Shown: positions 1-59,082 of the stretch, piece by piece
Layout of the letters: every line of letters starts with the position of its first letter
Numbering within the stretch: the stretch's first letter is position 1
The notes under the pieces: model-generated
What the model saw: only the letters and a program-made list of their open reading frames with translations
Database searches by the model: none
Told to the model about the DNA's origin: nothing
Translations under genes and position numbers: made by a program
Assembly: GCA_041917235.1 (NCBI GenBank)
Contig: JAYRXZ010000006.1
Span: forward strand, 41,517 to 105,516
Source: Lacunisphaera sp.
GTDB taxonomy: Bacteria > Verrucomicrobiota > Verrucomicrobiia > Opitutales > Opitutaceae
Direction: 5' to 3'
DNA length: 64,000 bases

Positions 1-1373
1 GTGCGGGCCACGGTGTCGAGCGGCTTGACGCGGCCGTTGACGAGCGTCGGCAGCTTGCCGAAGGCGTCGAGGTCGTAGTCCCCCTTCGGCGCGCGGGGAA
101 ACAGCGAAGAGGTGACGATCAGCCCCGCGAGCACCGGCACGAGGATCGCGGTGAGCCGGGCGGCGGTCCAGCGCGGGCCGGCGGGAGCGGCCGAGGCCGC
201 GGCGCCGGGCGCGGCGGCCGGGCGACGGCGCTTGCCGACGAAGCCGACGAGGTGCAGGCCGAACTGCCAGCCGAGGCCGAGCGTCATGATGCCGCACGCG
301 ATGTAGGGGATCAGCCAGCTCGGGTTGCGCACGACCTGGAGCACGGTGGTCGTGTCGTTGTTGTCGAAGCCGGCCTGATAGAACGTGAGCCCCGCGTAGC
401 GCAGCGGGTTGTTCATGTAGATGAGGACCTCGCGGTCGTCCTTGCCGTCGGGCGTGGTCAGGCGGAGGCGGCTGGAGAAGTTCTTCGGGATCTCGGTGCC
501 GGCGTAGCGGTCGTGGCTGAACTTCAGCAGCGTGAGCGAATACGGCTTGTAGTGCCGCGCATAGCGCAGCGCGATCTTCCACTTCCGGCCGCCGAACTCG
601 AAGGGCTGCGCGTCCAGCTGCGGCGCCACGAGCCACGTGCCGATCGGGCCGTCGGGGCCGGTCAGCTCGACGTAGGCGGCGGGCAGGTTGCGCTCGCCCT
701 CCTTGAAGGTCAGCGCCATCGGGCTGACGAGGATGCGCGGGCCGACGCCCTGGTTGGCCGGGCCGGTCGGGGCGTTGGCGCCGGGCATGGCCTCCGACAG
801 GCCGGCGTTGGGCAGGTAGGTGTGAACCCCGACGCGGAACGGCAGCTTGGGGTGCTGCACCGCCTGCTTGCGGGCGAGCGGCGCCTCGGGGATCGCGACC
901 ACCTCGTCGAACTTCGGGTCGGTCGTGTCGGTGATCGCCAGCTCGATGTTCCGGTAGCTCTCCGAGTAGTTCTTGGTCTCGCCCTGGTCGAGGCGCATCT
1001 GGAACTCGTCCTGCCAGAGCGCGGTGAGCAGCTGTCCGATGAGCAGGACGATCAGGCCGATGTGCGCCAGCCAGATGCCGAGCTTTTTCCAGCTGAACTG
1101 GAAGCGGTAGATGTGCGCGGCGATGAGGTTGACCAGCAGCAGCCCGCCCAGCGTGTAACCGCCGGGGAACACGGCGAGCGACATGTCGCCCACGTGCCAG
1201 AACACGATGAAGGTGTTGAAGTATTTCGCCTGCACCACCCAGATGCCGAGGTTCACCTGGTCCAGCGTGGCGACCAGGATGAGGATGATGGAGAACAGGA
1301 TCAGGACGACCGTGAGCTTGAGCGACACGAACAGGTCGCGCGCGTCGGAGAGGAGGGTGTTCAGGAATTTCAC
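1..1373 (-). CDS. Cytochrome c biogenesis protein, ResB/Ccs1 (CcsB) family, partial (C-terminus beyond window start). GTG start overlaps the stop of the upstream lipoprotein gene (GTGA).
   Basis: Own minus-strand translation (not in ORF track because no stop in window): VKFLNTLLSDARDLFVSLKLTVVLILFSIILILVATL... with N-terminal TM helices, a ~300 aa soluble domain, then ...YMNNPLRYAGLTFYQAGFD followed by a TM (WLIPYIACGIMTLGLGW). This resembles the ResB-family C-terminal signature. Strong GC3 bias. It then continues with a further TM and tail to the window edge. Confidence 0.55.
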   Translation of the reverse strand, partial: MKFLNTLLSDARDLFVSLKLTVVLILFSIILILVATLDQVNLGIWVVQAKYFNTFIVFWHVGDMSLAVFPGGYTLGGLLLVNLIAAHIYRFQFSWKKLGIWLAHIGLIVLLIGQLLTALWQDEFQMRLDQGETKNYSESYRNIELAITDTTDPKFDEVVAIPEAPLARKQAVQHPKLPFRVGVHTYLPNAGLSEAMPGANAPTGPANQGVGPRILVSPMALTFKEGERNLPAAYVELTGPDGPIGTWLVAPQLDAQPFEFGGRKWKIALRYARHYKPYSLTLLKFSHDRYAGTEIPKNFSSRLRLTTPDGKDDREVLIYMNNPLRYAGLTFYQAGFDNNDTTTVLQVVRNPSWLIPYIACGIMTLGLGWQFGLHLVGFVGKRRRPAAAPGAAASAAPAGPRWTAARLTAILVPVLAGLIVTSSLFPRAPKGDYDLDAFGKLPTLVNGRVKPLDTVAR

Positions 1374-2494
1374 GGCGCGGAGAGGGTTTGCACGAACGAG
1401 AGGAAGGCGGGCTTTTCCGCCGCGACCAGCGCGGCCGGACCGGTGAGCTTGAAGAACCACGTGGCGCCCGCGTGCGGGACCATCGCGCCGAGCAGGCGCT
1501 GCGGGTTGTCGCCGCCGCCCGTGATGTCCGCGAGCGTGACGGCCAGGCCGTTCACCGTGAGGCGCGTCACCGCGCCGGCGAACTCCGCCTCGGTGACGGG
1601 CGGCAGGCCGAGCTGGCCGCGCCAGCGGTTGAGATTGGCCAGGTCGCCGCCGACATCGCCGGGGAACGCCGTGACCGCGAGCTCGGCGGTGGCGCCGTTC
1701 GCGCCGGAAATGGTGAAGGTGGCCTTGCGCATCCCGACGCCGGTCTTCTCCAGCCAGCCGGCCGGGGCGGTCCACTTGAGACCGGGACCGCTGGCGCTGA
1801 CCACGGGCGAGCCGGTCATGTCCGCCGGCGGGGCGGCAGGTGCGGCGGTCACGGCTGCCGGGGTGGCGGCGGGCGCGGCCAGCGGCTGGGTGGAAACCTT
1901 GACGGTTTTCAGGAAGTCGAGGAACACGGCCTTTTCCGGCGCGACCACGGCGTCGGGGCCCGTGAGCTTGAAGAACCACGTGGCGCCCTGGTGCGGCACG
2001 ATGGCCCCGAGCATCCGCAGCGGGGCCTCGGCGGTGCCCCCGGCGAGGTCGACGACCTGCATGGCCACGCCCGCGCCGGACAGCGGCGTGAGGACGGCGG
2101 CAAGGTCCGCCGCGGCGATGGGCGGACGGCCGAGCTGGCCGAGCCAGCGGTTGACGTTGGCAAGGTCGCCGCCGACATCGCCCGGGAAGGCGGTGATCGC
2201 GAGGTCGGCGGCGGGGCCGCCCTCCGCGCCGATGGTGTAGCTGCCCTTGCGCATGGCGGATCCGGGCTTGGCCTTCCACGCGGCCGGGGCCGTCCAGGTG
2301 AGGCCGCCCGTCTCGGTGGAGGCAACCACCAGGCCGCCGGTGTCGGCGCCCATCGTCGCCGGGGTGGCGGCGGCCGCGGCCGGCGGCGGCGTGTCGTTTT
2401 CCTTGGGGATGCGGTAGGTGGCGACCTGGGCTTCGCGGCACGAGGCCAGGCCGAACGGAAGGACCATCAACAGGACCGGCCAGCGTGGGAGCAT
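1370..2494 (-). CDS. Lipoprotein of unknown function built from two tandem ~165-aa repeats (internal duplication)
   Basis: Track ORF 1370..2629(-); likely start at internal Met giving signal peptide MLPRWPVLLMVLPFGLASC (lipobox LASC). The two repeats share WTAPAxW...TAFPGDVGGDLANxNRWxGQLG...GAxVPHxGATWFFKLTGP. Co-oriented and overlapping with the ResB-like gene. Confidence 0.7.
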   Translation of the reverse strand: MLPRWPVLLMVLPFGLASCREAQVATYRIPKENDTPPPAAAAATPATMGADTGGLVVASTETGGLTWTAPAAWKAKPGSAMRKGSYTIGAEGGPAADLAITAFPGDVGGDLANVNRWLGQLGRPPIAAADLAAVLTPLSGAGVAMQVVDLAGGTAEAPLRMLGAIVPHQGATWFFKLTGPDAVVAPEKAVFLDFLKTVKVSTQPLAAPAATPAAVTAAPAAPPADMTGSPVVSASGPGLKWTAPAGWLEKTGVGMRKATFTISGANGATAELAVTAFPGDVGGDLANLNRWRGQLGLPPVTEAEFAGAVTRLTVNGLAVTLADITGGGDNPQRLLGAMVPHAGATWFFKLTGPAALVAAEKPAFLSFVQTLSAP

Positions 2495-2823
2495 GGCGCG
2501 GAGTGGAGAATAAAAGCGACCGCTTGGCAACCGTGACGGCCGGCGTGGAGGCAGACTGGATGGATTCATCGTGGAGCCGCGACTATGCCTGAAACCGGCC
2601 GGGGTGGCTGCGCATATCTTGCGAGCCATTAGCCGGGCCTTGCGGGAATTGCGTCCACCCCTCCGGCCGCCGGAGCAACAACCACAAACCCTGCGCGATA
2701 CTCGGCAACCAATGCGCAGCGACCGGAGCCGGTAACTGGCATTATAGGCGCGACAAGGTGCTGGGCCTCATTAATCTCCCGGCATCGCCTTCCTCATCCA
2801 TCATCACTCCATCCCCGCTCCTC

Positions 2824-3162
2824 ATGAAAAACCGCCATAAAGTCATCACCGCCGGCCTGGTCCTGCTCGCCGGCGCCACCCTGGGCCTCGCCGCCCCTGC
2901 CACCGAAAACTGGGAAAACCACTGCACCAAATGCCACGGCGAGGATGGCAAGGGCCAGACCAAGGTCGGCAAGAAACTCAAGCTGAAGGATTATACCGAC
3001 GCCAAGGCGCAGGCCGAGATGAAGGACGAGGACATGATCAAGGCCATCGCTGACGGCGTGAACGATGCCGCCGGCAAGGAGAAGATGAAGGCCTACAAGG
3101 ACGAGCTTTCGGCCGACGAGATCAAGGAACTCGTCGCCTACATCCGCAAGTTCAAGGCCTGA
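2824..3162 (+). CDS. Small soluble class I monoheme cytochrome c
   Basis: Track ORF 2758..3162; Met at 2824 gives signal peptide MKNRHKVITAGLVLLAGATLGLAAP; single CTKCH heme-binding motif; Lys-rich ~11 kDa mature protein. Confidence 0.8.
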   Translation: MKNRHKVITAGLVLLAGATLGLAAPATENWENHCTKCHGEDGKGQTKVGKKLKLKDYTDAKAQAEMKDEDMIKAIADGVNDAAGKEKMKAYKDELSADEIKELVAYIRKFKA

Positions 3163-3229
3163 GCCGTTCTCCCCCTGTTGCAGGGACGCCGCCTGACGGC
3201 GCCCCTGCCCTTCCCCTCATCCCACGCCC

Positions 3230-4714
3230 ATGTCCACGCCCACCCCGCCCCCCGTCGCGCCACGCTCCCACTTCAACAACTGGATCAGCGCCATCGGCGC
3301 CGTGCTCGCCGTGGGCGCGCTGTTCTCGTTCGCGCTGCTCTGCTGGATGGACCTGACCGGGGCGCACAAGAATCCCTACCTCGGCATCTTCACCTACCTC
3401 GTGGCCCCCGGCTTCCTCATCGCCGGCCTGGTCACGGTCTTTTTCGGCGCCTGGGCCCAGCGCCGCTGGGCGATCAAGCATGCGGCCACCATGCCCGACA
3501 AGTGGCGGCTGGACTTCACCAATCCCAAGCAGCGCAAGATGCTGGTCCTGTTCGGCATCGGGGGCGTCGGGTTCCTGCTCCTGAGCGCCTTCGGCAGCTA
3601 CCAGACCTACCATTACGCGGAGTCCACCCAGTTCTGCGGCCAGGTCTGCCACTCGGCCATGAACCCCGAGTTCGTCACCTACCAGCGCGGAGCACACGCC
3701 CGCGTGGACTGCGTGGAGTGCCATGTCGGGTCCGGCGCCACGGCTTTCATCAAGGCCAAGCTCAACGGCACGCGCCAGCTCATCGGCTATACGCTCAACA
3801 ACTACAACCGGCCGATCGACACGCCGGTGCACAACCTCCGCCCCGCCCGGGAGACCTGCGAGAAGTGCCACTGGCCGGAGAAGTTCCACGGCAACCTCGA
3901 CATCACCTTCGACCACTACCTTTCCGACAAGAAAAACACCCCCGCCAGCGTCCGCATGCTGCTGCATGTGAACTCCGGCCGGCAGGGCGGCCCGCTGGCC
4001 GGCATCCACTGGCACGTCAGCCCCGACAGCTCGGTCGAGTATTACGCCGCCGATGCTGACCGCCAGGACATCGTCTGGATGCGCGTCACGGACAAGAAGG
4101 CCGGCACGTCCCGGATCTACCGCAACGAGGAGTTCAAGGGCGAGCCGCCCGCAGGCACGGTCCGCACGATGGACTGCATCGATTGCCACAACCGCCCGGC
4201 CCACGCCTTCCCGACCGCCAACGACGCCGTCGAAAAGTCGCTCGGGCTCGGCACCCTCAGCACCAAGCTCCCCAACATCAAGCGCAGCGCCGTGCAGGCC
4301 ATGCTGCAGAAGGAGATCACCACCGACGCCGGCGCGCCGCAGCAGATCGCCGATTTCCTCACGGCCAAATACAAGGGCGACCCCGAGCTGCCCGCGGCCA
4401 TCGCCGAGGTGCAGCGCATCTACTCCACCTCCATCTTCCCCGAGCGCAAGGCCGACTGGCGCGTCTACCCGAACAACATCGGCCACAAGGACTGGCCCGG
4501 CTGCTTCCGCTGCCACGACGACAAGCACAAGACCGCCACCGGTGAAACCGTCCGCGCCAGCGACTGCACCTCGTGCCACTCGATCATCGCGCAGGGCAAG
4601 GGCGCCGAGCTCGCCACCATCTCGGCCAGCGGCCTGGAGTTCAAGCACCCCGGCGGCGAGCTCGATCCCGAGCTGAGCTGCGCGGACTGCCACAACGGCG
4701 GCATCCAGAAGTAA
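3230..4714 (+). CDS. Membrane-anchored multiheme cytochrome c, NapC/NirT/NrfH-like N-terminus with 7 CxxCH motifs (ImcH-like putative quinol dehydrogenase)
   Basis: N-terminal TM helices (ISAIGAVLAVGALFSFALL; VAPGFLIAGLVTVFFGAW), then CGQVCH, CVECH, CEKCH in NapC/NirT-like spacing, followed by CIDCH, CFRCH, CTSCH, CADCH. Confidence 0.85.
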   Translation: MSTPTPPPVAPRSHFNNWISAIGAVLAVGALFSFALLCWMDLTGAHKNPYLGIFTYLVAPGFLIAGLVTVFFGAWAQRRWAIKHAATMPDKWRLDFTNPKQRKMLVLFGIGGVGFLLLSAFGSYQTYHYAESTQFCGQVCHSAMNPEFVTYQRGAHARVDCVECHVGSGATAFIKAKLNGTRQLIGYTLNNYNRPIDTPVHNLRPARETCEKCHWPEKFHGNLDITFDHYLSDKKNTPASVRMLLHVNSGRQGGPLAGIHWHVSPDSSVEYYAADADRQDIVWMRVTDKKAGTSRIYRNEEFKGEPPAGTVRTMDCIDCHNRPAHAFPTANDAVEKSLGLGTLSTKLPNIKRSAVQAMLQKEITTDAGAPQQIADFLTAKYKGDPELPAAIAEVQRIYSTSIFPERKADWRVYPNNIGHKDWPGCFRCHDDKHKTATGETVRASDCTSCHSIIAQGKGAELATISASGLEFKHPGGELDPELSCADCHNGGIQK

Positions 4715-4804
4715 CGGCGCCCCGCCGGCAAATTACGCTCCGGTTCGGCCAAGCGCTGCGTAGCCGCGGCGCGGCATTCGGCGCATCCTGTGCGCGGAGC
4801 TACC

Positions 4805-6952
4805 ATGAACGCAATCTGCCGGCGGATCCCGCTACTCGTGTTCACCCTGCTGGCGCCCCTGGGCGCCCGCGCCGCCGACGCGGCCGTCACCCCCGCCCCG
4901 CTCAAGGCGCCGCCCGCGGTGCCCAACTCGGAGTGCATGGACTGCCACGAGGCCGAGTTCAAGGCCCCCAAGAAGGGCCTGCCGCCCGTCTGGATCGGTG
5001 TCCGGCCCGAGCTGTTCGCCAAGTCCGTGCACGGCGGACTGAACTGCGTGGACTGCCACGCCAGCATCAAGGACCCCACCCACGAGGACAAGCTGCCGCC
5101 CGCGCAGTGCGCCTCCTGCCACGAGGGCGCCGCCAAGCAGTTCGCCGCCAGCATCCACGGCGTGAAGCGCGACGGCGGGCTCCCCGTCGCCGCCACCTGC
5201 GCAAGCTGCCACGGCAAGACCCACGAGCTGCTGCCGGTGAAGCACGTGGATTCCCCCGTGGCGAAGTTCAGCCTCCTCGCCACCTGCGCGCAGTGCCACG
5301 AGGGCGACAAGACCAAGCTCGGCCTGAAGAACGGCGACGCCATTGCGCATTTCAAGGACAGCATCCACGGCCAGGGCCTCTACAAGATGGGGCTCAACGT
5401 CTCGCCCACCTGCAACGACTGCCACGGCGTGCACGACATCAAGTCCATCAAGGACGCCTCCGCCCACACCAGCCGCGCCGCCCTGTCCAAGACCTGCGGC
5501 GCCTGCCACGTCGGCGTCGAGAAGACCTACGCGGCCAGCATCCACGGCCAGCCCGCCAAGCCCGGCCAGAAGACCGCGGTCTGCACCGACTGCCACACCG
5601 CGCACGACATCGAGCGCCCCGGCAGCGCGCACTTCAAGCAGACCAGCGACCAGAAGTGCGGCGCCTGCCACGAGGACCGCCTCGCCAACTACCGCGAGAC
5701 CTACCACGGCAAGGCCATGCTGCTCGGCCAGGCCAGCGCCGCCACCGACGTCGCCGCGTGCTACGACTGCCACGGCCACCACGACATCCTCAAGCACACC
5801 GACCCGAAGTCGAAGCTCTCGGCCGGCAACATCGTCCAGACCTGCGCCTCGTGCCACAAGGGCGTCAACGCCGCCTTCACCCAATACCAGCCGCACGCGG
5901 ACCACACCGACGGGAAGAACTACCCGGTGCTCCACTGGACCTACCTCGCGATGACGACGCTGCTCGTCAGCGTGTTCGCCTTCTTCGGCGTGCACACGCT
6001 GCTCTGGATCACGCGCTTCACGCTCACTTATCTCCGCGACCCGGCCGGCTTCCGCGCCGCCCGCGCCGCGCTGCACGACGAGACGGAGACCTACCGCCGC
6101 TTCAACCCCTACGAGCGCTTCCTCCACATGCTCGTCGTCACGAGCTTCCTCGCGCTGGTGCTCACCGGCATGCCGCTGAAGTTCTATTACACCGAATGGG
6201 CGCGAGTCATGTTCAACGTCCTCGGCGGCCCCGAGGCCGCGCGCGTGCTGCACCACCTCGCCGCCCTCGTCACGTTCCTGTATTTCGGCCTGCACCTCGC
6301 CAGCCTCGCGCAGGGCCTGTGGCGGAACCGCGGCGCGGTGCGGGACCCCGCCACCGGGCGCTTCGCCCTCGGCCGGTTCTGGGGCGCCGTGTTCGGGCCC
6401 GACTCCATGGTCCCGTCCTTCCAGGACCTGCGCGACTTCCTCGCCCACGTGAAGTGGTTCCTCGGCCGGGGCCCGCGCCCCTCGTGGGACCGCTGGACCT
6501 ACTGGGAGCGCTTCGACTACCTCGCCGTCTTCTGGGGCGTCGGCATCATCGGCCTCTCCGGCCTCGTGCTGTGGTTCCCGAAGTTCTTCACCACCTTCCT
6601 GCCCGGCTGGCTGATCAACATCGCGGTGGTGATCCACTCCGACGAGGCCCTGCTCGCCGCGGGCTTCATCTTCACGTTCCATTTCTTCAACACGCACTTC
6701 CGGCTGGATAAGTTCCCGATGGATACCGTGATCTTCTCCGGCCACATCTCGAAGGCCGAGATGCTGACCGAGCGCCGCCGGTGGTATGACCGCCTCGTCG
6801 CCTCGGGGAAGCTCGAGCAGCACCGCGTGATCCACACCGACTGGGCCGCCCGGCGCACGCTCTACAAGACGCTCGGCTTCATCTTCGTCGGCATCGGGCT
6901 GCTGCTCCTCGCGCTGATGATCTACGCCCTGCTCTCGCGCCTCGGCCACTGA
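4805..6952 (+). CDS. Fusion protein: N-terminal periplasmic 11-heme c-type cytochrome + C-terminal dihaem cytochrome b membrane domain (FdnI/HydC/PhsC-like); CbcL-like
   Basis: Signal peptide MNAICRRIPLLVFTLLAPLGARA; 11 CxxCH motifs (CMDCH, CVDCH, CASCH x3, CAQCH, CNDCH, CGACH x2, CTDCH, CYDCH). C-terminal ~330 aa with 5-6 TM helices, motif RFNPYERFLHMLV and TM histidines (HHLAALVTFLYFGLH; VVIHSDEA; FTFHFFNTHF). Confidence 0.85.
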   Translation: MNAICRRIPLLVFTLLAPLGARAADAAVTPAPLKAPPAVPNSECMDCHEAEFKAPKKGLPPVWIGVRPELFAKSVHGGLNCVDCHASIKDPTHEDKLPPAQCASCHEGAAKQFAASIHGVKRDGGLPVAATCASCHGKTHELLPVKHVDSPVAKFSLLATCAQCHEGDKTKLGLKNGDAIAHFKDSIHGQGLYKMGLNVSPTCNDCHGVHDIKSIKDASAHTSRAALSKTCGACHVGVEKTYAASIHGQPAKPGQKTAVCTDCHTAHDIERPGSAHFKQTSDQKCGACHEDRLANYRETYHGKAMLLGQASAATDVAACYDCHGHHDILKHTDPKSKLSAGNIVQTCASCHKGVNAAFTQYQPHADHTDGKNYPVLHWTYLAMTTLLVSVFAFFGVHTLLWITRFTLTYLRDPAGFRAARAALHDETETYRRFNPYERFLHMLVVTSFLALVLTGMPLKFYYTEWARVMFNVLGGPEAARVLHHLAALVTFLYFGLHLASLAQGLWRNRGAVRDPATGRFALGRFWGAVFGPDSMVPSFQDLRDFLAHVKWFLGRGPRPSWDRWTYWERFDYLAVFWGVGIIGLSGLVLWFPKFFTTFLPGWLINIAVVIHSDEALLAAGFIFTFHFFNTHFRLDKFPMDTVIFSGHISKAEMLTERRRWYDRLVASGKLEQHRVIHTDWAARRTLYKTLGFIFVGIGLLLLALMIYALLSRLGH

Positions 6953-6962
6953 GGACCCTTCC

Positions 6963-8294
6963 ATGAACGCCACGCCGCTGCTCGACTCCATTCTGCTCGG
7001 GCTGTTCCGTTACCGCACGCGCGGTTTCATGCGGATGACCGACTGTGACGGCACGGTGCCGCCCCGGCCGCAATCAGGCGGGACCTACCTCTACGTGCAC
7101 ATCCCGTTCTGCGAGGCGCTGTGCCCGTTCTGCTCGTTCCACCGCGTGCTGCACTGCCGCCCGCAGGCGAAACGCTACTTCGCCGCGCTCCGCCGCGAGC
7201 TCGAGCTCTACCACGCGGCCGGCTTCGAATTCACCGGGGTCTACTTCGGCGGCGGCACCCCGACCGTCGAGCCGGAGGAGCTGCTTGAGACCATCGCGCT
7301 CGTGCGGACGCGGTTCGCCGTGAAGGAGATCTCGGTCGAGACCAACCCCCGCGACCTCCGCCCCGACCTGCTCGCCCGGCTGCGCGCCGGCGGCGTGACG
7401 CGCCTCTCGGTCGGCGTGCAGAGCTTCGACGACACGCTGCTGCGCGAGATGGGCCGCTTTGAGAAATACGGCGGCGGGGCCGAGACGGCGGAGCGCATCC
7501 GCGGCGTGGCGGGGCTCTTCCCCACCCTCAACGTCGACCTGATCTTCAACCAGCCGCACCAGACCCTCGCGTCGCTCGAGCGCGACCTGGAGATCTTCTC
7601 GACCCTCGGGGCCGGCCAGGTTTCCTGCTATCCGCTGATGACCTCGCCCTCCGGCCTGCGCCGCCTCGCCGGCGCAATGGGCGTGCCCGACCGGCGGCGG
7701 CTGCGCCGGTTTTACCAGACCATCGGGCGCCGGCTCGCGGCCGGCGGCTTCTCGCCGACCTCCGCGTGGTGCTTCACGCGGAACGGCCATGGCAGCGACG
7801 AATACATCGCCACCGCGGACAACTACGTCGGCGCCGGCAGCGGCGCGTTCAGCTACCTCGACGGGACGCTCTACTCGACGAGCTTCTCGCTCAACTCCTA
7901 CGAGGAGCGCATCGCGCGGGGCCTCACCGGCATCGTGACGCGGCACCAGCTCGGGGACACCGACCGCATGCGGTATGCGCTGCTCGTGCGGATGTTCGGC
8001 CTCGGCCTCGACCGCGCGTGGGCGGTCGAGCATCACGGCCGAAAATTCTTCCGCCGCCTCTGGGGCGAGCTGCTCACGCTTGAGCTCCTCGGCGCGGCCA
8101 CGCGCGACGCGCGCGGCTGGCGGCTGACGGAAAAGGGCCGCTACTGGCTCATGCTGATGATGGCGGAATTCTTCGAGTCGGTGAACGCCTACCGCGACGC
8201 GATGCGCGCGCACGTGGCGGCCGAGCAGGCCGCGACCGCGCTGGCCGACCCGCTGCACGCCGCCTCCGCAGATTCCGCTCAGGCCAGTGCCTGA
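6963..8294 (+). CDS. Radical SAM protein, HemN/HemW family (oxygen-independent coproporphyrinogen III oxidase-like / heme chaperone-like)
   Basis: CxxxCxxC cluster in YVHIPFCEALCPFCSF followed by the family hallmark YFGGGTP; ~440 aa. True start may be a downstream Met (MRMTD). Confidence 0.85.
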   Translation: MNATPLLDSILLGLFRYRTRGFMRMTDCDGTVPPRPQSGGTYLYVHIPFCEALCPFCSFHRVLHCRPQAKRYFAALRRELELYHAAGFEFTGVYFGGGTPTVEPEELLETIALVRTRFAVKEISVETNPRDLRPDLLARLRAGGVTRLSVGVQSFDDTLLREMGRFEKYGGGAETAERIRGVAGLFPTLNVDLIFNQPHQTLASLERDLEIFSTLGAGQVSCYPLMTSPSGLRRLAGAMGVPDRRRLRRFYQTIGRRLAAGGFSPTSAWCFTRNGHGSDEYIATADNYVGAGSGAFSYLDGTLYSTSFSLNSYEERIARGLTGIVTRHQLGDTDRMRYALLVRMFGLGLDRAWAVEHHGRKFFRRLWGELLTLELLGAATRDARGWRLTEKGRYWLMLMMAEFFESVNAYRDAMRAHVAAEQAATALADPLHAASADSAQASA

Positions 8295-8472
8295 CCTAAT
8301 GTTAGGTGTTAACCCTACCTCAGGCCTAAGCATCGCTAATACACACCAAATCGTGCATACAACTCCGCAAGTGATGCGCAGCCATTGCCACCCCGTTCCG
8401 ATAGAGTGACCACGCTGAACCAGAACCTTTCCCCCGAACCAAGCCCAACCCTTCACTCCTAACTTTACGCCC

Positions 8473-9252
8473 ATGAAACTCCCGCTCCGCTGGACAAAAA
8501 ACACGCTGATCTTCGGCGGCATCGCCGCCTGGGGCCTCCTGCTGGTCTCCTGCGTTTCCGTCAACCGCTCCGTCATGGCACCGCCCTCGGTGCCGGGGGC
8601 CAAATTCGTGGGCACCAAGGCCTGCGCCGAATGCCATGAGACCGTGACCACGGGATTCCATGACGCGACGCACGCCAAGCTCACCGCCGATGGCGGCAAC
8701 GGCCAGGACATCGGCTGCGAGGCCTGCCACGGCCCCGGCAGCATCCACGTGAAGTCCGGCGGCGGCGCCGGCAGCATCGTGAACCCGGGCAACTCGCCCG
8801 AGACCTGCTTCCAGTGCCACCTGGACAAGCGCGGCGAGTTCAGCCTGCCGAACACCCACCCGGTGCTCGCCGGCAAGATGAGCTGCAGCGACTGCCACAG
8901 CCCGCACACCGGCGACGCCATCAACGAGACCAACACCGGCATGTCGACGCTCAACTCGTCCTGCCTGAAGTGCCACACCTCACAGGGCGGCCCCTATGTC
9001 TTCGAGCACGAGGCTTCCCGCGAGGGTTGCATGTCCTGCCACAGCCCGCACGGCTCCGTGAACCAGAAGATGCTCAAGGCCCGCAATGCCAACCTCTGCC
9101 TGCAATGCCACTTCCAGGAGCAACCCTCCGCCGGTGTCATCATGATCGGCGGCCGCGACCACGCGAGCTTCCTGTCCCGCGGCACCTGCTGGTCCGGTGG
9201 CTGCCACGAGGCCGTCCACGGCTCACACGTCAGCTCCTCCCTCCGCTTCTAA
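8473..9252 (+). CDS. Periplasmic/lipoprotein multiheme cytochrome c (7 CxxCH + 1 CxxxxCH), MtrA/OmaB-like
   Basis: Signal/lipobox region IAAWGLLLVSC; motifs CAECH, CEACH, CFQCH, CSDCH, CLKCH, CMSCH, CLQCH plus CWSGGCH in 259 aa, i.e. extremely heme-dense. Confidence 0.85.
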   Translation: MKLPLRWTKNTLIFGGIAAWGLLLVSCVSVNRSVMAPPSVPGAKFVGTKACAECHETVTTGFHDATHAKLTADGGNGQDIGCEACHGPGSIHVKSGGGAGSIVNPGNSPETCFQCHLDKRGEFSLPNTHPVLAGKMSCSDCHSPHTGDAINETNTGMSTLNSSCLKCHTSQGGPYVFEHEASREGCMSCHSPHGSVNQKMLKARNANLCLQCHFQEQPSAGVIMIGGRDHASFLSRGTCWSGGCHEAVHGSHVSSSLRF

Positions 9253-9277
9253 CACCCAAACCATCACGGATACTCCG

Positions 9278-11404
9278 ATGAACTCCACCGCCATTCTCCA
9301 CCTGATTCGCCGGCCCATGCTGGTCCTCGCGGGGGCGAGCCTGCTGGGCCTGCCGGGCGCCTTGAGCGCCCAAACCGGCAAGGCCAAGGAACCGACCTAC
9401 GAGAACTACATCGACTTCTCCGCGGGCTACAACCTGCAGGAGGGCGACCGCCCCGGCTTCCAGAAGCAATTCCAGCTCAATAAAAAGGGATCCATCGGCA
9501 TCGAGGATCTCTACTACACCACCGAGCTGAAGAACGAGGCCGTCCTCAAGCTCCGTGGCCATGCCCTGGCCGGGAACCATGACTACCTCCTCGACCTGTC
9601 CATCACCAAGGACGAGGTCGGCTACCTGAAGGCCGGCTACAAGATGTTCCGCACCTGGTATGATGGCAGCGGCGGCGTCTGGCCCACCAACGGCCTGCGC
9701 ATCCAGCTCTACGACGAGGACCTGCATGTCGACCGCGGCAACCTCTGGCTGGAGGCCGGCTTCACCAAGCCCGACGCCGTCAACTTCATGTTCCGTTACG
9801 ACTACCTCACGAAGAAGGGCCAGAAGGATTCCACCAGCTGGATGGACACCGGTCTCGCCGTCAGCGCGTCGGCCACCCGCTACATCGTGCCGACCTACCT
9901 GACCTTCGACGAGAAGCGCCACATCCTCAACGGCACCGTCTCGAAGGTCGCGGGCAAGCATGACCTCGCCCTGGGCCTCCGTTACGACAAGGGCGAGTAT
10001 GAGAACGGCCGCTACAGCCGCCGCACCCCGGGGCAGTCGACCGACCGCTACGTCACCGCCAAGGAGGGCCAGGACTTCGATCTGTTCCAGATCCGCGGCA
10101 GCTATCTCAACCAGCTGACCGAGAAGCTCAAGCTGACCACCGCCGTCGCCCGCACCAAGATCGACACCATCCTCAGCGGCAGCCGCATCTTCGGCACCGG
10201 CTACGACGCGGACTACAGCAGCACCTTCCCGACCCGCCAGCAGCGCGACGAGGGCTATTTCAGCCTGCTCCCCGGCAACGAGCTCGGCAAATCGCAGATG
10301 ACGCAGACCGTCGCCACCCTCAGCGCGCTGTATCTCGGCTCCGAGACCCTCCGCATCACGCCCTCCTTCCGGTTCGAGAAGACCCAGTGGCACAACCTGA
10401 TCGGGTTCGAGGAAACGAACTTCGGTGCCGCCCCCACCTTCACGCCCATCAACGACGAGGTGGAGGCCCGGAGCGCGAAAAGCTGGAAGACCTACGCCGC
10501 CAGCGTCGAAGCCCGCTACACCGGTTACAAGAACGTCTCACTCAACTTCAAGGCCGACTGGTCCAACTCCGCGGGCGAGCTCCAGGAGGAGCGCATCCTT
10601 GAGCCGGGCACCCCGCTGCAGGCCATCTCGATCGACCGCGACACCGAGCTGGAGCGCAGCGTGCAGAAGTATGCCTACACCGCCAACTGGTATGCCCGCC
10701 CCGGCACCACCGTCGCGGTGCAATACTACTTCAAGGCCCGCCAGAACGACTACCGCGCCACCCGCGACAACACCGTCAGCACCGCCGACCGCTACCCGGC
10801 CTACGTCACCGGCCAGGACTTTGAGACCAATGACTTCAACATCCGCCTGTCGCACCGCCTGTCGCCCAACTTCCGGACGATCACGCGCTACGACTACCAG
10901 AAGACCACCGTCCGCTCGCAGGAGGTCGGCTTGGCGTTCGCCCAGAGCATGGAGTCCATCCAGCACATCCTCTCCGAGAGCGTGACCTGGAACCCGCTCG
11001 CCCGCTGGTATCTCCAGGGCAACGTCAACTACGTGAACGAGACCCTCAAGACTCCGGCCGTCGGCCTGACCGGCGCCGCGAGCAACCTCGTGAAGAACAG
11101 CGATTCGAACTACGTGAACTTCAGCCTGAGCAGCGGCTACGCCCTCGACGAACAGAGCGACCTACTGGTGGATTACATGCTCTACAAGGCGATGGGTAAT
11201 TACATCAACAACTCCGCCGTCACCGTGCCCTACGGCACCGACAGCAAGCTGCAGACCTTCTCGGTGGGCTGGAACCGCCGCATGAACGCCCGCACGACGG
11301 TCAACCTGAAGTATACCTACGCCAAGAACGAGGACGTCCCGTCGCTCGGCGCCGCTGACTACGAGGGCCACCTGCTCTACGGTAAGGTCCAGTATCGCTT
11401 CTGA
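9278..11404 (+). CDS. Outer-membrane beta-barrel protein (~708 aa), putative porin partner of the upstream multiheme cytochrome (MtrB/MtoB/OmbB-like)
   Basis: Track ORF 9197..11404; Met at 9278 gives signal peptide MNSTAILHLIRRPMLVLAGASLLGLPGALSAQ. Alternating hydrophobic/aromatic beta-strand pattern throughout; C-terminus ...LYGKVQYRF with terminal Phe typical of OMPs. Starts 26 bp after the cytochrome gene. Confidence 0.75.
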   Translation: MNSTAILHLIRRPMLVLAGASLLGLPGALSAQTGKAKEPTYENYIDFSAGYNLQEGDRPGFQKQFQLNKKGSIGIEDLYYTTELKNEAVLKLRGHALAGNHDYLLDLSITKDEVGYLKAGYKMFRTWYDGSGGVWPTNGLRIQLYDEDLHVDRGNLWLEAGFTKPDAVNFMFRYDYLTKKGQKDSTSWMDTGLAVSASATRYIVPTYLTFDEKRHILNGTVSKVAGKHDLALGLRYDKGEYENGRYSRRTPGQSTDRYVTAKEGQDFDLFQIRGSYLNQLTEKLKLTTAVARTKIDTILSGSRIFGTGYDADYSSTFPTRQQRDEGYFSLLPGNELGKSQMTQTVATLSALYLGSETLRITPSFRFEKTQWHNLIGFEETNFGAAPTFTPINDEVEARSAKSWKTYAASVEARYTGYKNVSLNFKADWSNSAGELQEERILEPGTPLQAISIDRDTELERSVQKYAYTANWYARPGTTVAVQYYFKARQNDYRATRDNTVSTADRYPAYVTGQDFETNDFNIRLSHRLSPNFRTITRYDYQKTTVRSQEVGLAFAQSMESIQHILSESVTWNPLARWYLQGNVNYVNETLKTPAVGLTGAASNLVKNSDSNYVNFSLSSGYALDEQSDLLVDYMLYKAMGNYINNSAVTVPYGTDSKLQTFSVGWNRRMNARTTVNLKYTYAKNEDVPSLGAADYEGHLLYGKVQYRF

Positions 11405-11423
11405 GGCCGACTCCCTCACCCCC

Positions 11424-11457
11424 GGCCGCGGCGTCCTCGGACCCGCGGCCTTTTTGT
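11424..11457 (+). terminator. Rho-independent terminator after the cytochrome/porin operon
   Basis: GGCCGCGG cgtcctcggac CCGCGGCC followed by TTTTTGTTT, 20 bp after the stop at 11404. Confidence 0.7.
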
Positions 11458-11704
11458 TTATTCCCTGTGGGTCTAACCCCCCGGAGCTTGCTCCGACTTG
11501 GATTGTGCAATCCCACGGCGAGGTCGCCGTGGCTCCAGATCCGGCGCCTGGAGCGCGGGCGACCCCGCCCGCGAAGGGTTCGTTCAAAGGCCCGGAGCTT
11601 GCTCCGGGGATATTTACGGCCCTGGCCCCGGGGCCCGCAATATCCGCGCAGTGCCTGACAACGGGCGCAGGGCCGACCGCGCCCCTCCCTGCTAGAATGA
11701 GGGC

Positions 11705-13117
11705 ATGAACCTGCTCGCGCCCTCCGCCCCGTCAGCTCCCGCCGCCGCATCGCACGTGTGGCCCGTGGCCGTCATCGGCGGCGGCCTCACCGGCCTCGCC
11801 ACCGCCTGGCAGCTGCGCCGGGCGGGCGTCCCGGTCGTGGTGTTCGAGGCCGGCGTGGCCCCCGGCGGCGTCATCGGCTCCGGCCGCGAGGGCGGCTGGC
11901 TGGTCGAGACCGGCCCCAACACCCTCTTCGAGAACACCCCGGATATCTCGGCCTTCCTCACGGAGCTCGGACTGCGCGATCGCCGGCTTGTGGCCAATCC
12001 CGCCGCGGCGAAGCGCTACGTCGTGCAACATGGCGCCCCCGTGGCCCTGCCCGACTCCGCGTTTAAGTTCATTACCACCCCGCTCCTGTCAGCCCGCGCC
12101 AAGCTCAACGTGCTCGGCGAACCCTTCCGTGGCCGCCCGCCGGCGGGCAAGGAGGAATCCGTCGCGGAGTTCGTCACGCGCCGCCTCGGCCCGGAGTTTC
12201 TCGACTACATCGTGAACCCGTTCGTCGCGGGCGTCTTCGCCGGCGACCCGGCCGCCCTGTCCGTGAAGCACGCCTTCCCCAAGCTCTTCGCGCTGGAACA
12301 CGAGCACGGCTCGCTCGTCCGCGGCTCGCTCGCGCGGCGCAACGCCACCGGCGCCCCGAAGGGCAGCATGATCTCCTTTCCTGACGGCCTGGCGGAGATC
12401 CCCCGCGCCCTCGCCCGGGCCCTCGGCTCCGACCTGCGACTCGGCCACGCCGTCACCCATGTCCGCCGCACCGGCTCGACCTGGCAGGTCGGCTTCATCA
12501 CCGGCGGCATCCGCCGGGAGGAGGAATTTGCCGCCGTGATCTGCGCGCTGCCGCCCGACCTGCTGGGCGGGCTCCGGTTTGAGGGCGCCCCCGCCGCCGG
12601 CGCGCTCGCCCAGCTGCGCCGGGTCACCTCGCCGGCCGTCGCCTCCGTGTTCCTCGGCTACCGCCGGGAGGACGTCGCGCACCCGCTCGACGGCTTCGGC
12701 ATCCTCACCCCCGCGGTCGAGCGGCGCCGCATCCTCGGCACGCTGTTTTCCAGCACCCTGTTCCCCGGCCGCGCGCCGGAGGGACATGTCGCCCTGACCA
12801 CCTTCGTCGGCGGCACGCGGCAGCCGGAACTCGCCGGCGCCAGCGACCGCGAGCTGCTCGACACCGTCCGCTCCGAACTTGGCGCGCTGCTCGGCGTGCA
12901 CGGCGAACCCGTGTTCACCCGGATCCAGCGCTGGCCGCACGCCATCCCGCAATACACCGTCGGCTTCCAACAGTTCAAGGATGCCTGCGCCGCCGCCGAG
13001 GCCGGCGCGCCCGGCCTTTTCATCGGCGGCACCAGCCGCGACGGTGTCTCGCTCTCGCAATGCATCGCCGCCGGCAAGCGGCTGGCTGCGGCCGTCCAAC
13101 AGGCCGTCACGGCCTGA
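11705..13117 (+). CDS. hemY: Protoporphyrinogen oxidase (HemY/PPOX family, FAD-dependent)
   Basis: N-terminal dinucleotide-binding motif VAVIGGGLTGLATAWQL; length and conservation pattern of PPOX (VQHGAPVALP; FxGGxSRDGVSL near C-terminus). Confidence 0.8.
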   Translation: MNLLAPSAPSAPAAASHVWPVAVIGGGLTGLATAWQLRRAGVPVVVFEAGVAPGGVIGSGREGGWLVETGPNTLFENTPDISAFLTELGLRDRRLVANPAAAKRYVVQHGAPVALPDSAFKFITTPLLSARAKLNVLGEPFRGRPPAGKEESVAEFVTRRLGPEFLDYIVNPFVAGVFAGDPAALSVKHAFPKLFALEHEHGSLVRGSLARRNATGAPKGSMISFPDGLAEIPRALARALGSDLRLGHAVTHVRRTGSTWQVGFITGGIRREEEFAAVICALPPDLLGGLRFEGAPAAGALAQLRRVTSPAVASVFLGYRREDVAHPLDGFGILTPAVERRRILGTLFSSTLFPGRAPEGHVALTTFVGGTRQPELAGASDRELLDTVRSELGALLGVHGEPVFTRIQRWPHAIPQYTVGFQQFKDACAAAEAGAPGLFIGGTSRDGVSLSQCIAAGKRLAAAVQQAVTA

Positions 13118-13450
13118 GGCAACTGCATCGAAGGTGGAACCCGGCCTCTGGACGGGTTGGTCAGATGTGCGCCAAGAAATCAGATCCAGCCTGTCCGCCA
13201 TAGTCTCGGCAAAGGCGGAAGGCCTGTTTCGCCCAGCGAGTGCTTTCAAACCCCTCAGCTTCCGAAACCTGTCATTCTGAGCGTAGCGAAGTCTAGCCAG
13301 CAGGCTGGTTCGACATCCAGTTGAATGCTCGCTGCTCAAGCAAAGCGGCCCACATCCCGATGCATTCTTCACTGCGTTCAGAATGACAAATCGAGATTCT
13401 AAAACACTTCCTGGTTTAACTCCGCATCCCGGCTCCGTCGCCAAGGGCCC

Positions 13451-14551
13451 TCACCCCGCCAGGCTGACGGCCGGATAAAACTCGACCGGACGGTCGGCGG
13501 CCGTCGCTTGGGCATCCCCGGCCTGCAGCGCCCGCTCGGCCTGCGCCCAGAGGGTGGTCGTGCGCTCGGCGAGGATCTCGCGGCAGCGGATGATCTCCGA
13601 CTCCCGCGCCGCGCGGTTTTCCGCGGCGATCTTCGCGAGGTCGTCGAGATTGTAGACAAAGACGTTCTTGAGCGCAGTGACGCCGGCATCGACGTCGCGC
13701 GGCAGGGCGGCATCGATGAAAAACATCGGCCGGCCCGAGCGCTGCTGCATCGCGGCGGCAGCCCGCTCCGGCGAGATGATGGCCGCGGGACAGGAGGTGG
13801 AGCAGACCACGACGTCGAATTCGCCCAGTCGGGTGAGCGCCTCGTCAAAGGAGACCGCCGTGGCCCCCAGTTCCATTGCCGCCTCGCTGGCACGCTCCAG
13901 GCGCCGGCTGGCGACCACCAACGAACCCGGGCTGCGGCTGCGGAAGGCGCGGCCGCTCTTCAGGCCGATGTCGCCGGCACCCAACAACAGCACCTTCGTT
14001 TCGTCGAGCTTGCCGAAGATCCGCAGCGCGACCTCCACGGCCACGTTCGAGACGCTGACCAGGCCCGCCGTGATGCCCGTGTGCGTGCGGACGTGCTTGG
14101 CCGCCTGGAAGGCTTTCTGGAAAATGCGGTTCAGGACCGGACCCGCCGAGCCCCGGCCCTGTGCGGTGAGGAAGGCTTTCTTCACCTGGCCGAAAATCTC
14201 GTTCTCGCCGATCATCTGGGAATCGAGGCCGCTCGCCACCTCCAGCAGATGCTCGACCGTCGCGCGGCCGGCCAAGCCCAGCTTGATCCGATCAAATTCC
14301 TCCGGCGCGAAGCCCTGCCGCGCGCAGAACGCCGCGGCCACTTGGGCGGCCTGGCGATCGTTCTCGCCGACCCCGTAGATTTCCACGCGGTTGCAGGTGT
14401 TCAGGATGACAAACTCGACCAGGCCCGGGAGCCCCTTCAGGTCCGCGGCCAGACCGGCCTCGTTCACGGCGGAGAGGGCCAGCTTTTCGCGCAGCCCGAG
14501 CGGGGCGGTGCGGTGGGTGGCGCCAACAAGAAACAGTTGTCCGTCGTTCAT
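13451..14551 (-). CDS. hemA: Glutamyl-tRNA reductase
   Basis: Track ORF 13451..14878(-); the conserved HemA N-terminus begins at internal Met MNDGQLFLVGATHRTAPLGLREKLAL; contains ILNTCNRVEIYG (catalytic Cys region) and NADPH-binding LLLGAGDIG. Confidence 0.85.
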   Translation of the reverse strand: MNDGQLFLVGATHRTAPLGLREKLALSAVNEAGLAADLKGLPGLVEFVILNTCNRVEIYGVGENDRQAAQVAAAFCARQGFAPEEFDRIKLGLAGRATVEHLLEVASGLDSQMIGENEIFGQVKKAFLTAQGRGSAGPVLNRIFQKAFQAAKHVRTHTGITAGLVSVSNVAVEVALRIFGKLDETKVLLLGAGDIGLKSGRAFRSRSPGSLVVASRRLERASEAAMELGATAVSFDEALTRLGEFDVVVCSTSCPAAIISPERAAAAMQQRSGRPMFFIDAALPRDVDAGVTALKNVFVYNLDDLAKIAAENRAARESEIIRCREILAERTTTLWAQAERALQAGDAQATAADRPVEFYPAVSLAG

Positions 14552-14798
14552 CGTGCGGTGGTAGGGTGAAATCTGAACCCGGCCAGTATCGCAGGGATGC
14601 CCGGAACCGTCTGCGCGACGGTTGCCATCCACTCCGCAGTTCTTGCGCCCTGTGCCTGGGGGACCGCCCCGGGACCCGCCTGATCCCCTAATGCCCCTTA
14701 TGAGAAGGCCTTGAACGTCCGCCGGCCCGCCGGGGGCCCCGGCGGGCCGGCCAAGTTTCTGTTCGACAAGCCCCCGCCCGGCGCCTTCTGTTCCGGCC

Positions 14799-15035
14799 AT
14801 GGCCTCGCCTGAGAAAAAGCCCTTTTCCGTCGTCACCCTCGTCATTGACCTGACGCTCACCGCCATCGCCTTTGGCATCTTTTACTGGCTCGTGAACTCG
14901 CACGTGCCCTCCAACGACCCGAAGATGGTCATGCTGTGGGGTGGCCTCGCCGCCGGCTGCATGGCCGGCGTGTTCTGGCTCGCCTGGCAGATGCTCAAGG
15001 TCGTCTTCCAGTTCCAGCGCGATTCGCGCAAGTGA
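14799..15035 (+). CDS. Small hypothetical membrane protein (78 aa, 2 predicted TM)
   Basis: Strong GC3 bias; two hydrophobic helices; no competing credible ORF (overlapping 14882..16366(-) ORF is antisense to a real gene). Confidence 0.5.
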   Translation: MASPEKKPFSVVTLVIDLTLTAIAFGIFYWLVNSHVPSNDPKMVMLWGGLAAGCMAGVFWLAWQMLKVVFQFQRDSRK

Positions 15036-15065
15036 GCCATGCGCCCCCGCGGCGCGAATAGATCT

Positions 15066-15097
15066 GGCCCCACCCCGGCGGTGGGGCTATTTTTTTG
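15066..15097 (+). terminator. Rho-independent terminator
   Basis: GGCCCCACC ccggc GGTGGGGC followed by TATTTTTTT. Confidence 0.6.
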
Positions 15098-15157
15098 CCA
15101 ATCCTGCCATGCGCCCCCGCCCCGAACCCCTGACCGGACGCTGACCGGCCTGCACGG

Positions 15158-17430: not shown

Positions 17431-17701
17431 GGGCTTGCCCGCGGCGACCGCCGGCGCGGCGTCGCCGGTCGCGGCCTCATCATATTCATCCACTGGGGGT
17501 TGCTCGCTCAAGCCCTGACCTAGAAGCAACTTTCCCCCGGGCCCGCAAGGCCCGTATTTCCGCCCCGGGGGCCCGCCGCCCGGGCTGCGCATCCCTTGTC
17601 ATAACCAATTCCCGGGCCCGCCCTACAGTTAGACCCGCCTCGAACGTTGACACCCCCGCGCCCGCCCGCTGCGATAACCTTCCCTATTTTTCATTTCACC
17701 C

Positions 17702-58986: not shown

Positions 58987-59082
58987 TATACTGGTCCCGG
59001 TGTATCTCCCTCGGAAATGGCAAGAAATGCGCCTTTTCCGACAAGCCCAGCCTTTACCAATCCGCGCTTGTAAGACATAGTA

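Follow-up and report, generated by a model that had tools for sequence, protein, structure and literature searches.

Does this bacterium have the means to pass electrons between its quinone pool and the outside of the cell, and if so, in which direction would they travel? The question is raised by six genes, here called A to F, that lie at 2824-11404 on the plus strand of a 64-kb stretch of Lacunisphaera sp. DNA, referred to below as the window. We consider it likely that the cluster encodes a trans-envelope electron-transfer conduit of the MtrAB/MtoAB type in a Lacunisphaera-like Opitutaceae bacterium. A sequence-only reading of the same DNA had proposed a two-component conduit like MtoAB/PioAB and had held that the direction of flow cannot be told from sequence. 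The computational follow-up supported that reading, and all of its module assignments survived: a soluble monohaem cytochrome c (A), a membrane-anchored seven-haem NapC/NirT-like cytochrome of ImcH architecture (B), an 11-haem domain fused to a FdnI/HydC-like dihaem b domain (C), a HemN/HemW radical SAM protein (D), an eight-haem periplasmic lipoprotein (E) and an outer-membrane beta-barrel of about 708 aa (F). The genes are as follows.

A, 2824-3162, plus strand: 112 aa from an ATG start, signal peptide, one CxxCH
B, 3230-4714, plus strand: 494 aa, CX3CH and six CxxCH
C, 4805 (or GTG at 4790)-6952, plus strand: 11 CxxCH, then a polytopic hydrophobic C-terminal half
D, 6963-8294, plus strand: 443 aa, radical SAM motif CEALCPFC
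E, 8473-9252, plus strand: 259 aa, lipobox LVSC (leader ...LLLVSC), seven CxxCH and one CX4CH
F, 9278-11404, plus strand: 708 aa, signal peptide, no Cys, C-terminal YRF

That the six open reading frames (ORFs) are co-directional was borne out, and all of them show the bias of real genes in a high-GC genome, with GC at third codon positions (GC3) of 0.81-0.96; GC content runs from 65 to 73% along the window and is 68% for the genome. Signal peptides, transmembrane segments or lipoprotein leaders were found on the cytochromes, and their c-haem sites number 27 (1, 7, 11 and 8 in A, B, C and E), in line with the earlier figure of at least 27. A six-frame scan of the whole 64 kb found 25 CxxCH motifs, 24 of them within the four cytochrome genes and a stray one at 15096, a clustering that is far from chance. 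The genes had also been described as tightly spaced, which holds for the A-B, B-C, C-D and E-F gaps (67, 90, 10 and 25 nt) but not for the 178 nt between D and E.

The octahaem cytochrome E and the barrel F

When E was searched against all PDB sequences with phmmer, it matched MtrA (6r2q_A, mislabelled in the sequence file) with an E-value of 5.7e-28 and 101.8 bits, residues 78-254 of E lying on 156-326 of MtrA, and the match to NrfB in the same search was far poorer (7.7e-7). Motifs 2-8 of E are collinear with the seven C-terminal motifs of MtrA, and the CX4CH of E is aligned to the last CxxCH of MtrA. E does not carry ten CXXCH motifs; its count of seven CxxCH and one CX4CH is kept in about 70 homologues. 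It falls below the cut-off of the DmsE/MtrA family model TIGR03508 (155.6 bits vs. 192.2), which is consistent with eight haems instead of ten, and below that of the GSU2203-family model (169.1 vs. 325). Judged by the alignment, E is a true MtrA homologue, octahaem and shortened, that appears to lack two of the N-terminal MtrA haems. A lipobox of the form L-[VIA]-[SGA]-C is present in every one of the approximately 70 homologues with an intact N-terminus, and E is predicted to be lipid-anchored rather than a soluble periplasmic protein like MtrA. In the 6r2q structure the N-terminal end of MtrA juts into the periplasm, and it is therefore plausible that E is a shorter wire, tethered by lipid and only long enough to cross the barrel. 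In databases the homologues of E bear generic or wrong names, such as 'cytochrome c3 family' and 'nitrite reductase pentaheme subunit'.

The C-terminus of E (9220-9252), ending ...HGSHVSSSLRF, is near-invariant in the same set of homologues, and its aromatic last residue resembles an outer-membrane beta-signal. This end could be a barrel contact or an assembly signal.

For F, an AlphaFold2 model built from 57 homologues had 26 long antiparallel strands, with a predicted local distance difference test (pLDDT) of 84 and a predicted template modelling score (pTM) of 0.76. The top Foldseek match of this model in PDB was MtrB (6r2q_B; E-value 2e-13, template modelling scores 0.64/0.69), followed by 22-strand TonB-dependent receptors at 0.36-0.44; F has no plug domain. 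Searches by sequence returned no match in Pfam (E-values up to 1) or NCBIfam (E-values up to 10), PF11854 MtrB/PioB included, and none among all PDB sequences using phmmer or two family profiles. F is about 10% identical to MtrB, and of 56 distant members of its family, 4 gave weak PF11854 matches (best 1.1e-7). According to the model, the fold of F is MtrB-like with a sequence likeness at or below the detection limit, its 26-strand barrel is wide enough to take up a multihaem cytochrome, and we propose that F is an outer-membrane 26-strand barrel acting as the sheath for E.

Conservation in related genomes

One genome per species was scanned for F, and 61 loci were found, nearly all of them in Opitutaceae/Opitutales, with one Binatia locus at 25% identity. 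The closest relatives of F are in Lacunisphaera metagenome-assembled genomes (MAGs), at 97% identity in CBDFNB010000022.1 and 91-92% in others, and one locus, L065, is from a MAG that bears the label Opitutus sp. GAS368. Against 1.84 billion representatives, a profile of the F family found 1088 clusters (50% identity) at E-values up to 0.001. The six window proteins were then compared by tblastn with all loci, and the counts below are for the 37 genome loci in which the barrel gene is flanked by 6 kb or more on either side.

MtrA-like gene directly upstream of the barrel gene: 36 of 37 loci
Monohaem c gene within 10 kb: 34 of 37 loci
ImcH-like gene within 10 kb, always with the monohaem c gene: 30 of 37 loci
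Any CbcL-like gene: 16 of 37 loci
CbcL-like gene of at least 55% identity: 11 of 37 loci
Radical SAM gene: 7 of 37 loci
Second, paralogous cytochrome and barrel pair: 4 of 37 loci

A synteny search for the same block had been suggested, and it shows the E-F pair, A and B recurring together in permuted order. L. limnophila and Oleiharenicola lentus have the order E-F-A-B-C(-C'); the window, L009-L011 and L035 have A-B-C-D-E-F. The gap between E and F stays mostly at about 20-150 nt across E sequences that have diverged to about 50% identity, and the two genes are duplicated together in some genomes. This linkage has outlasted rearrangement, which argues for functional coupling.

The same data bear on a different account of the cluster, in which the cytochromes would work in respiration or detoxification wholly within the periplasm, for instance by supplying a soluble reductase or peroxidase whose gene lies elsewhere, with F an ordinary large porin or transporter as neighbour. 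Such an account could draw on the missing sequence-family assignment of F, on the annotation of the L. limnophila E homologue as an NrfB-like pentahaem subunit and on the weak NrfB matches of E. It is, however, at odds with the near-invariant adjacency of E and F and their duplication as a unit, with a best structural match of F to MtrB and not to a transporter (26 strands vs. 22, and no plug), and with the far better match of E to MtrA than to NrfB. Genes for nrfA, hao or sulfite reductase were not found nearby either; no nitrite, hydroxylamine, sulfite or molybdopterin reductase genes are present in the 64-kb window, and no nitrite, hydroxylamine or sulfite reductase genes, which had been named beforehand as neighbours that would indicate a periplasmic role, adjoin the block in the window or the related loci. 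We therefore regard a purely periplasmic chain as very unlikely.

No ORF with 10 or more haems was found near the pair in the related loci, only 4-5-haem ORFs beside Fer4/NrfD modules, so the absence of an MtrC-like partner is typical of the lineage. The earlier statement that no decahaem lipoprotein of the MtrC/OmcB type follows the barrel held for the full 64 kb and for the related loci. The lack of a surface cytochrome gene nearby, along with a DmsE-family score of E that is about equal to that from any other model, would also suit an arrangement like DmsEF, where E and F, instead of reacting with minerals or humics directly, feed a non-cytochrome terminal reductase on the cell surface whose gene lies in another part of the genome. 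The dmsEFAB genes of Shewanella sit together. A molybdopterin oxidoreductase or other candidate surface enzyme was linked to the pair in 0 of the 37 loci and was not seen in the window, making this arrangement highly improbable here.

Two further observations concern the pair and its surroundings. About 10 loci have such 4-5-haem ORFs close to the pair, and in L009 the barrel gene is followed at 12322-16041 by genes for a monohaem c, a 4-haem cytochrome, a 4Fe-4S protein and an NrfD-like membrane subunit, which resemble a further quinone-linked Qrc/ACIII-like module. In L001, which comes from a near-identical strain (E 100% identical), an extra paralogous pair sits at 10882-13981 between the barrel gene and hemY. 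Its cytochrome has 271 aa and 65% identity to E, its barrel 752 aa and 28% identity to F; no such pair is present at 11405-11704 of the window.

Inner-membrane and periplasmic partners

The hydropathy of B shows three hydrophobic helices (residues 17-44, 50-76 and 103-124), its haem motifs are a CX3CH at 136 and CxxCH at 161, 210, 316, 425, 446 and 484, and residues 101-193 match the NapC/NirT family PF03264 with 50.6 bits (cut-off 24.1). Matches to NrfH were also obtained (TIGR03153, 5.7e-15; structure 2j7a, 2.7e-5). ImcH is defined by three transmembrane helices (TMH), a CX3CH plus six CX2CH motifs, and a resemblance to NapC/NirT in the part that surrounds TMH3 and the first haems (PMC6295460; ImcH preprint), and the motif positions of B are those of Oter_2584, a catalogued ImcH homologue (Zhong & Shi 2018, PMC6295460), with an offset of 16-17 residues. 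Glu, Lys and Tyr residues located, without alignment, near the haem-1 region of B are compatible with the conserved E127/K173/Y188 of ImcH. We propose that B is an ImcH-type inner-membrane heptahaem cytochrome and a (mena)quinol dehydrogenase.

The membrane domain of C scores slightly below the PF01292 cut-off (28.6 bits vs. 30.1) and matches TIGR01583 at 6.2e-8 (FdnI/Ni_hydr_CYTB-like); the two CbcL-like genes of the L. limnophila locus (L007) give strong PF01292 matches. Across 21 homologues of C, including paralogues that are only 27-32% identical, the 22 haem Cys and six membrane His are all invariant, and six His are enough for two b haems. The haem motifs of C span 49...352 when numbered from 4790. 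In L. limnophila, Verru16b_03342 (722 aa, 11 motifs at 48...353, 6 TMH) is a catalogued CbcL/MtrH/MtoC homologue (PMC6295460 supplement), and Oter_2603 is catalogued likewise (PMC6295460). The tblastn match between C and the product of a 722-aa gene at L007 16633-18801 is at 63% identity, and that gene is taken to be Verru16b_03342 on its length and motif pattern. By these likenesses C is of the CbcL/MtrH/MtoC type: a predicted signal peptide is followed by a c domain of 11 haems, and the membrane domain at the C-terminus is FdnI/HydC-like and dihaem-b-like. Within the haem domain (5100-5800), modules of about 57-59 aa recur as near-repeats spaced 171-177 nt, which indicates that the 11-haem array probably expanded through internal duplication.

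A matched PF00034 Cytochrom_C (44 bits) and PF13442 Cytochrome_CBB3 (42.7 bits), and the closest solved structures were small soluble Kuenenia c-552 cytochromes (8.6e-10). MtoD, the monohaem cytochrome c of the mto cluster, was matched weakly (4xxl, 0.012). From these matches A is classed as a secreted class I monohaem cytochrome c.

D passes the cut-off of NF006385, 'coproporphyrinogen III oxidase family protein' (412.8 bits vs. 355), and stays below the equivalog cut-offs for HemN (TIGR00538, 102.7 vs. 324.95) and HemW (TIGR00539, 129.6 vs. 205.4); we place it in the HemN family. Wherever D is present, it lies directly 3' of the CbcL-like gene, even where the modules are permuted (L013, L016, L017); it is an optional member of the cluster and a companion of the CbcL-like gene. 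HemW is a known haem chaperone. The probable role of D is to supply C with haem or to help insert it, and by analogy with HemW it may load haem into C, with an ordinary haem-synthesis role beside hemY/hemA equally possible.

Proposed electron path

In the conduit that we favour, B (ImcH-type) and/or C (CbcL/MtoC-type) would exchange electrons with the (mena)quinone pool, and A, small and soluble, would ferry them over the periplasm. E would be held at the periplasmic mouth through the lipid on its N-terminus, sit in the F barrel and wire the electrons through the outer membrane. A gene for a surface cytochrome like MtrC is missing from the neighbourhood; the terminal haem of E would therefore itself react with extracellular partners, dissolved or colloidal (for example humic quinones, chelated Fe(III)/Mn or shuttles), as has been proposed for two-component conduits of the MtoAB/PioAB type. 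This conduit reading is supported by the homology of E to the MtrA of the solved MtrCAB complex, by the diagnostic ImcH and CbcL architectures of B and C, by the System II maturation and haem-synthesis genes flanking the cluster, by the absence of terminal reductase genes from the window and the related loci, by the weak PF11854 matches of some distant F relatives, by the conserved linkage of E, F, A and B, and by the 16-nt motif that A, E and U1-ccsB share (see below). The first dissimilatory Fe(III) reduction in the phylum, reported for Limisphaera in September 2026, is from a different lineage and comes with no genetic link (PMC13608581), though we count it in favour as well. The conduit hypothesis has also been reached independently for this gene family by He et al. 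(PMC5615132).

Several points weigh against a conduit. The whole case is computational, and we found no report in the literature of metal respiration by cultured Lacunisphaera or other Opitutaceae. F has no MtrB sequence similarity detectable in Pfam, NCBIfam or PDB searches, and a large barrel fold on its own is no proof of cytochrome sheathing. E has eight haems and not ten, with an N-terminal lipid anchor that is absent in MtrA, and we infer rather than see that eight haems span the barrel. The AlphaFold2 model of E (49 sequences, 64-92% identical) was unusable, with a pLDDT of 48.7 and a pTM of 0.30, likely because the prediction was haem-free and the alignment shallow. Finally, the flow direction is unreadable from sequence, and a class I monohaem c beside a conduit is the MtoD arrangement of Fe(II) oxidisers.

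Direction of electron flow

The last of these points leads to the idea that the same hardware runs in reverse, taking up electrons from extracellular Fe(II), reduced humics and the like, as has been proposed for MtoAB/PioAB, and passing them via A to a terminal oxidase or uphill via C to quinones. A two-component conduit with no MtrC-like partner would fit uptake, as would the monohaem c gene alongside, even with its weak MtoD match, and the CbcL/MtrH/MtoC family to which C belongs occurs in both reducers and oxidisers (PMC6295460). ImcH homologues, on the other hand, have so far come only from Fe(III) reducers (PMC6295460), and of the genes for inner-membrane partners, the ImcH-like one has the tightest linkage to the pair, ahead of the CbcL-like genes in the counts above. 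The surrounding genes are also those of a heterotroph (GH31, GH2, PcRGLX-like protein, PPDK, 2-oxoacid:ferredoxin oxidoreductase), and no carbon-fixation genes were seen in the window. Uptake is thus unlikely in our estimate. With ImcH homologues known from reducers only, B as the tightest-linked inner-membrane partner and a heterotrophic context, outward flow, as anaerobic respiration by a polysaccharide-fermenting heterotroph, is more likely than inward flow.

Comparison with known systems

The nearest published counterpart is in the Verrucomicrobia, where He et al. (mSphere 2017, PMC5615132; He et al. 2019, PMC6344600) described 'novel porin-MHC' clusters (multihaem cytochrome, MHC) in which a large predicted porin of at least 20 strands lies beside a periplasmic cytochrome with eight conserved haem sites. 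Homologues were listed in Opitutus terrae, Opitutus sp. GAS368 and IMCC26134, and extracellular electron transfer (EET) to humic substances was proposed (PMC5615132). E and F are of the same kind, with F at 26 predicted strands beside an eight-haem cytochrome. The paper differs from our results in stating that Mtr/Pcc homologues are absent, whereas here E is clearly an MtrA homologue and F is modelled with an MtrB fold, and in reporting an extracellular MHC gene 'in several cases', whereas the window has none. In the text of PMC5615132 that we read, there is no description of linkage to ImcH-type, CbcL-type or monohaem c genes, of E as a lipoprotein or of a shared promoter motif.

MtoAB of Sideroxydans/Gallionella and PioAB of Rhodopseudomonas palustris likewise combine an MtrA-type cytochrome with a barrel and have no MtrC-type surface cytochrome. 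As in A-F, a class I monohaem c and a quinone-linked cytochrome of the NapC/NirT or CbcL/MtoC type are encoded alongside in mto-type clusters (PMC6295460). The differences are that MtoA and PioA are decahaem and soluble, whereas E is an octahaem, predicted lipoprotein under the DmsE/MtrA cut-off; that MtrB/PioB models do not recognise F; and that the cluster here has an ImcH-type partner, which is not known from oxidisers, in a heterotrophic host.

With MtrCAB of Shewanella (6r2q), the E-F pair shares the order of cytochrome gene followed by barrel gene, but here there is no MtrC, E has eight haems instead of ten and is predicted to be lipid-anchored, and the partners are of the ImcH and CbcL types and not CymA. 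An N-terminal CXXC has been reported for Shewanella-type MtrB, and it is absent from F, which has no Cys at all.

Geobacter sulfurreducens ImcH has three TMH, a NapC/NirT-like region, seven motifs and a first motif of the form CX3CH in common with B. Geobacter CbcL has the N-terminal multihaem c domain and the HydC/FdnI-like, six-helix b domain in common with C, with 9 haems to the 11 of C. OmaB of Geobacter has eight haems like E, but E is Mtr-type and not OmaB-type, and unlike in Geobacter Pcc (OmaB/OmbB/OmcB) no OmcB-like surface lipoprotein is found here. The imcH, cbcL and pcc genes are scattered in Geobacter and clustered here, and the periplasmic carrier is the trihaem PpcA there and a candidate monohaem c here. 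Zhong & Shi (2018) found no mtrAB adjacent to imcH (PMC6295460), presumably since the barrel is undetectable by sequence.

The type of system and its parts are therefore already published, and the novelty implied by the sequence-only reading is not justified. What we did not find in the literature consulted is the homology of E to MtrA with the MtrB-like fold of F, the universal lipobox, the imcH linkage and the shared 16-nt motif described below. Our literature searches found no experimental EET in Opitutaceae or Lacunisphaera and no work joining Opitutaceae with ImcH/CbcL, and Verrucomicrobia were not mentioned in the published Mtr/Fe-oxidation surveys that we searched. It is possible, and we put this forward more tentatively than the conduit itself, that the cluster represents a distinct minimal Mtr-type conduit, with a lipid-anchored, eight-haem MtrA relative at the mouth of a highly diverged 26-strand barrel, fed by a monohaem c from dedicated ImcH- and CbcL-type quinol dehydrogenases and co-regulated with System II maturation through a cis-element.

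Soils, sediments and lakes commonly harbour Opitutaceae, which pass for degraders of sugars and polysaccharides. If the conduit is real, they could respire humic substances or metal oxides, or draw electrons from reduced iron or humics, and carbon flow in anoxic, humus-rich habitats would be moved away from fermentation and methanogenesis, a consequence raised by He et al. (2017). If the distinct architecture is real as well, widespread polysaccharide degraders of soil and freshwater would be electroactive towards humics, iron or manganese, and this might hold for either direction of flow. If an MtrA can be octahaem and lipid-anchored and its barrel invisible to sequence searches, surveys based on hidden Markov models miss whole lineages of Mtr-like conduits. 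The cultivable relatives L. limnophila and Oleiharenicola lentus carry the cluster, so these ideas are directly testable, with the structural likeness to Mtr and the motif with its likely regulatory role as concrete experimental handles.

Shared promoter-region motif and transcription units

A repeat search brought up a 16-mer, GCAA-N3-ATGCGCAGC, with three exact copies in the 64 kb against 0.23 expected and one more copy with one mismatch; the other direct repeats reflect only the haem-motif modules in C and E. The copies are as follows.

2607-2622, minus strand: upstream of U1-ccsB (see below), sense orientation
2705-2720, plus strand: about 100 nt upstream of A, sense orientation
8367-8382, plus strand: about 90 nt upstream of E, sense orientation
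17584-17599, minus strand: one mismatch, upstream of tatC, kept in the nearest relatives only

The element recurs about 90-105 nt upstream of the E-type or A-type gene in many Opitutaceae loci, with the placement upstream of A seen in L001, L010, L011, L050 and L065. A related CAA-N4-TGC box lies 21 nt before it and a CATAnnnT-like box after it. Its position suggests that it is likely a shared regulator or promoter site for putative A-B-C-D and E-F units. The cluster had been called one operon, which it probably is not: with this conserved promoter-region motif upstream of both A and E, it probably consists of at least two transcription units that are co-regulated with cytochrome c maturation. 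The tatC copy, given its mismatch and poor conservation, was not counted as established. A sigma-54 reading of TGGC...TTGC was rejected, since its GG and GC stand 3 nt too far apart and the site is antisense to the downstream genes. A scan of 2400-11800 for consensus promoters and terminators gave 0 sigma-70-like sites and terminator-like hairpins at chance level, and was uninformative.

Flanking genes

The genes around the cluster, where Pfam matches uphold the ResB-like, hemY, hemA, tatC and TlpA/ResA-like thioredoxin assignments made earlier, are these.

3-1373, minus strand: ResB/CcsB-like System II maturation gene running off the left end of the window (PF05140 ResB, 61.8 bits, cut-off 24.6)
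1370-2629, minus strand: U1, a predicted lipoprotein of two tandem repeats of about 165 aa (419 aa, GC3 0.90, lipobox LASC)
11705-13117, plus strand: HemY-type FAD amine oxidase, a protoporphyrinogen or coproporphyrinogen oxidase (PF01593, 217 bits)
13451-14551, minus strand: hemA (GluTR; PF05201, 146.5 bits; PF01488, 106.2 bits)
16696-17493, minus strand: tatC (Pfam)
17702-20476: PPDK
20597-21544: redoxin/thioredoxin with WCGPC (Pfam)
59074-60957: 2-oxoacid (pyruvate):ferredoxin oxidoreductase-type gene

The counterpart of the ResB-like gene in L009 encodes a 1009-aa ResB+Cytochrom_C_asm fusion, and relatives carry fused ResB+CcsA. U1, an unannotated gene that calls for a correction of the earlier picture, lies between this gene and the cluster, co-directional with and directly upstream of the ccsB-like gene, and its true start is probably downstream of 2629. 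It has no Pfam or PDB match. In 13 related loci U1 adjoins the ResB/CcsBA gene on the same strand, several of them with a single-repeat version, and U1 could have an accessory role in System II cytochrome c maturation that has so far gone unnoticed.

An FAD/NAD-binding protein gene is among the downstream neighbours, and the rest of the window holds glycoside hydrolases (GH31, GH2), a PcRGLX-like protein and an RND efflux pump. As annotated, this is the gene content of a polysaccharide-degrading heterotroph. PPDK and the 2-oxoacid:ferredoxin oxidoreductase point to a putative anaerobic or fermentative capacity of the host, which bears on whether the conduit serves anaerobic respiration. An Rfam scan of 1-22000 returned no RNA families.

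Divergence from the closest genome

The closest genome, the Lacunisphaera MAG of L010, is 92-97% identical to the window over most of 1-11500. Identity drops to 75-78% in the periplasmic part of the ImcH-like gene (3500-4500) and reaches 100% over 1 kb inside the barrel gene (10251-11250). This mosaic divergence suggests recombination tracts or possible replacement of the imcH-like allele.

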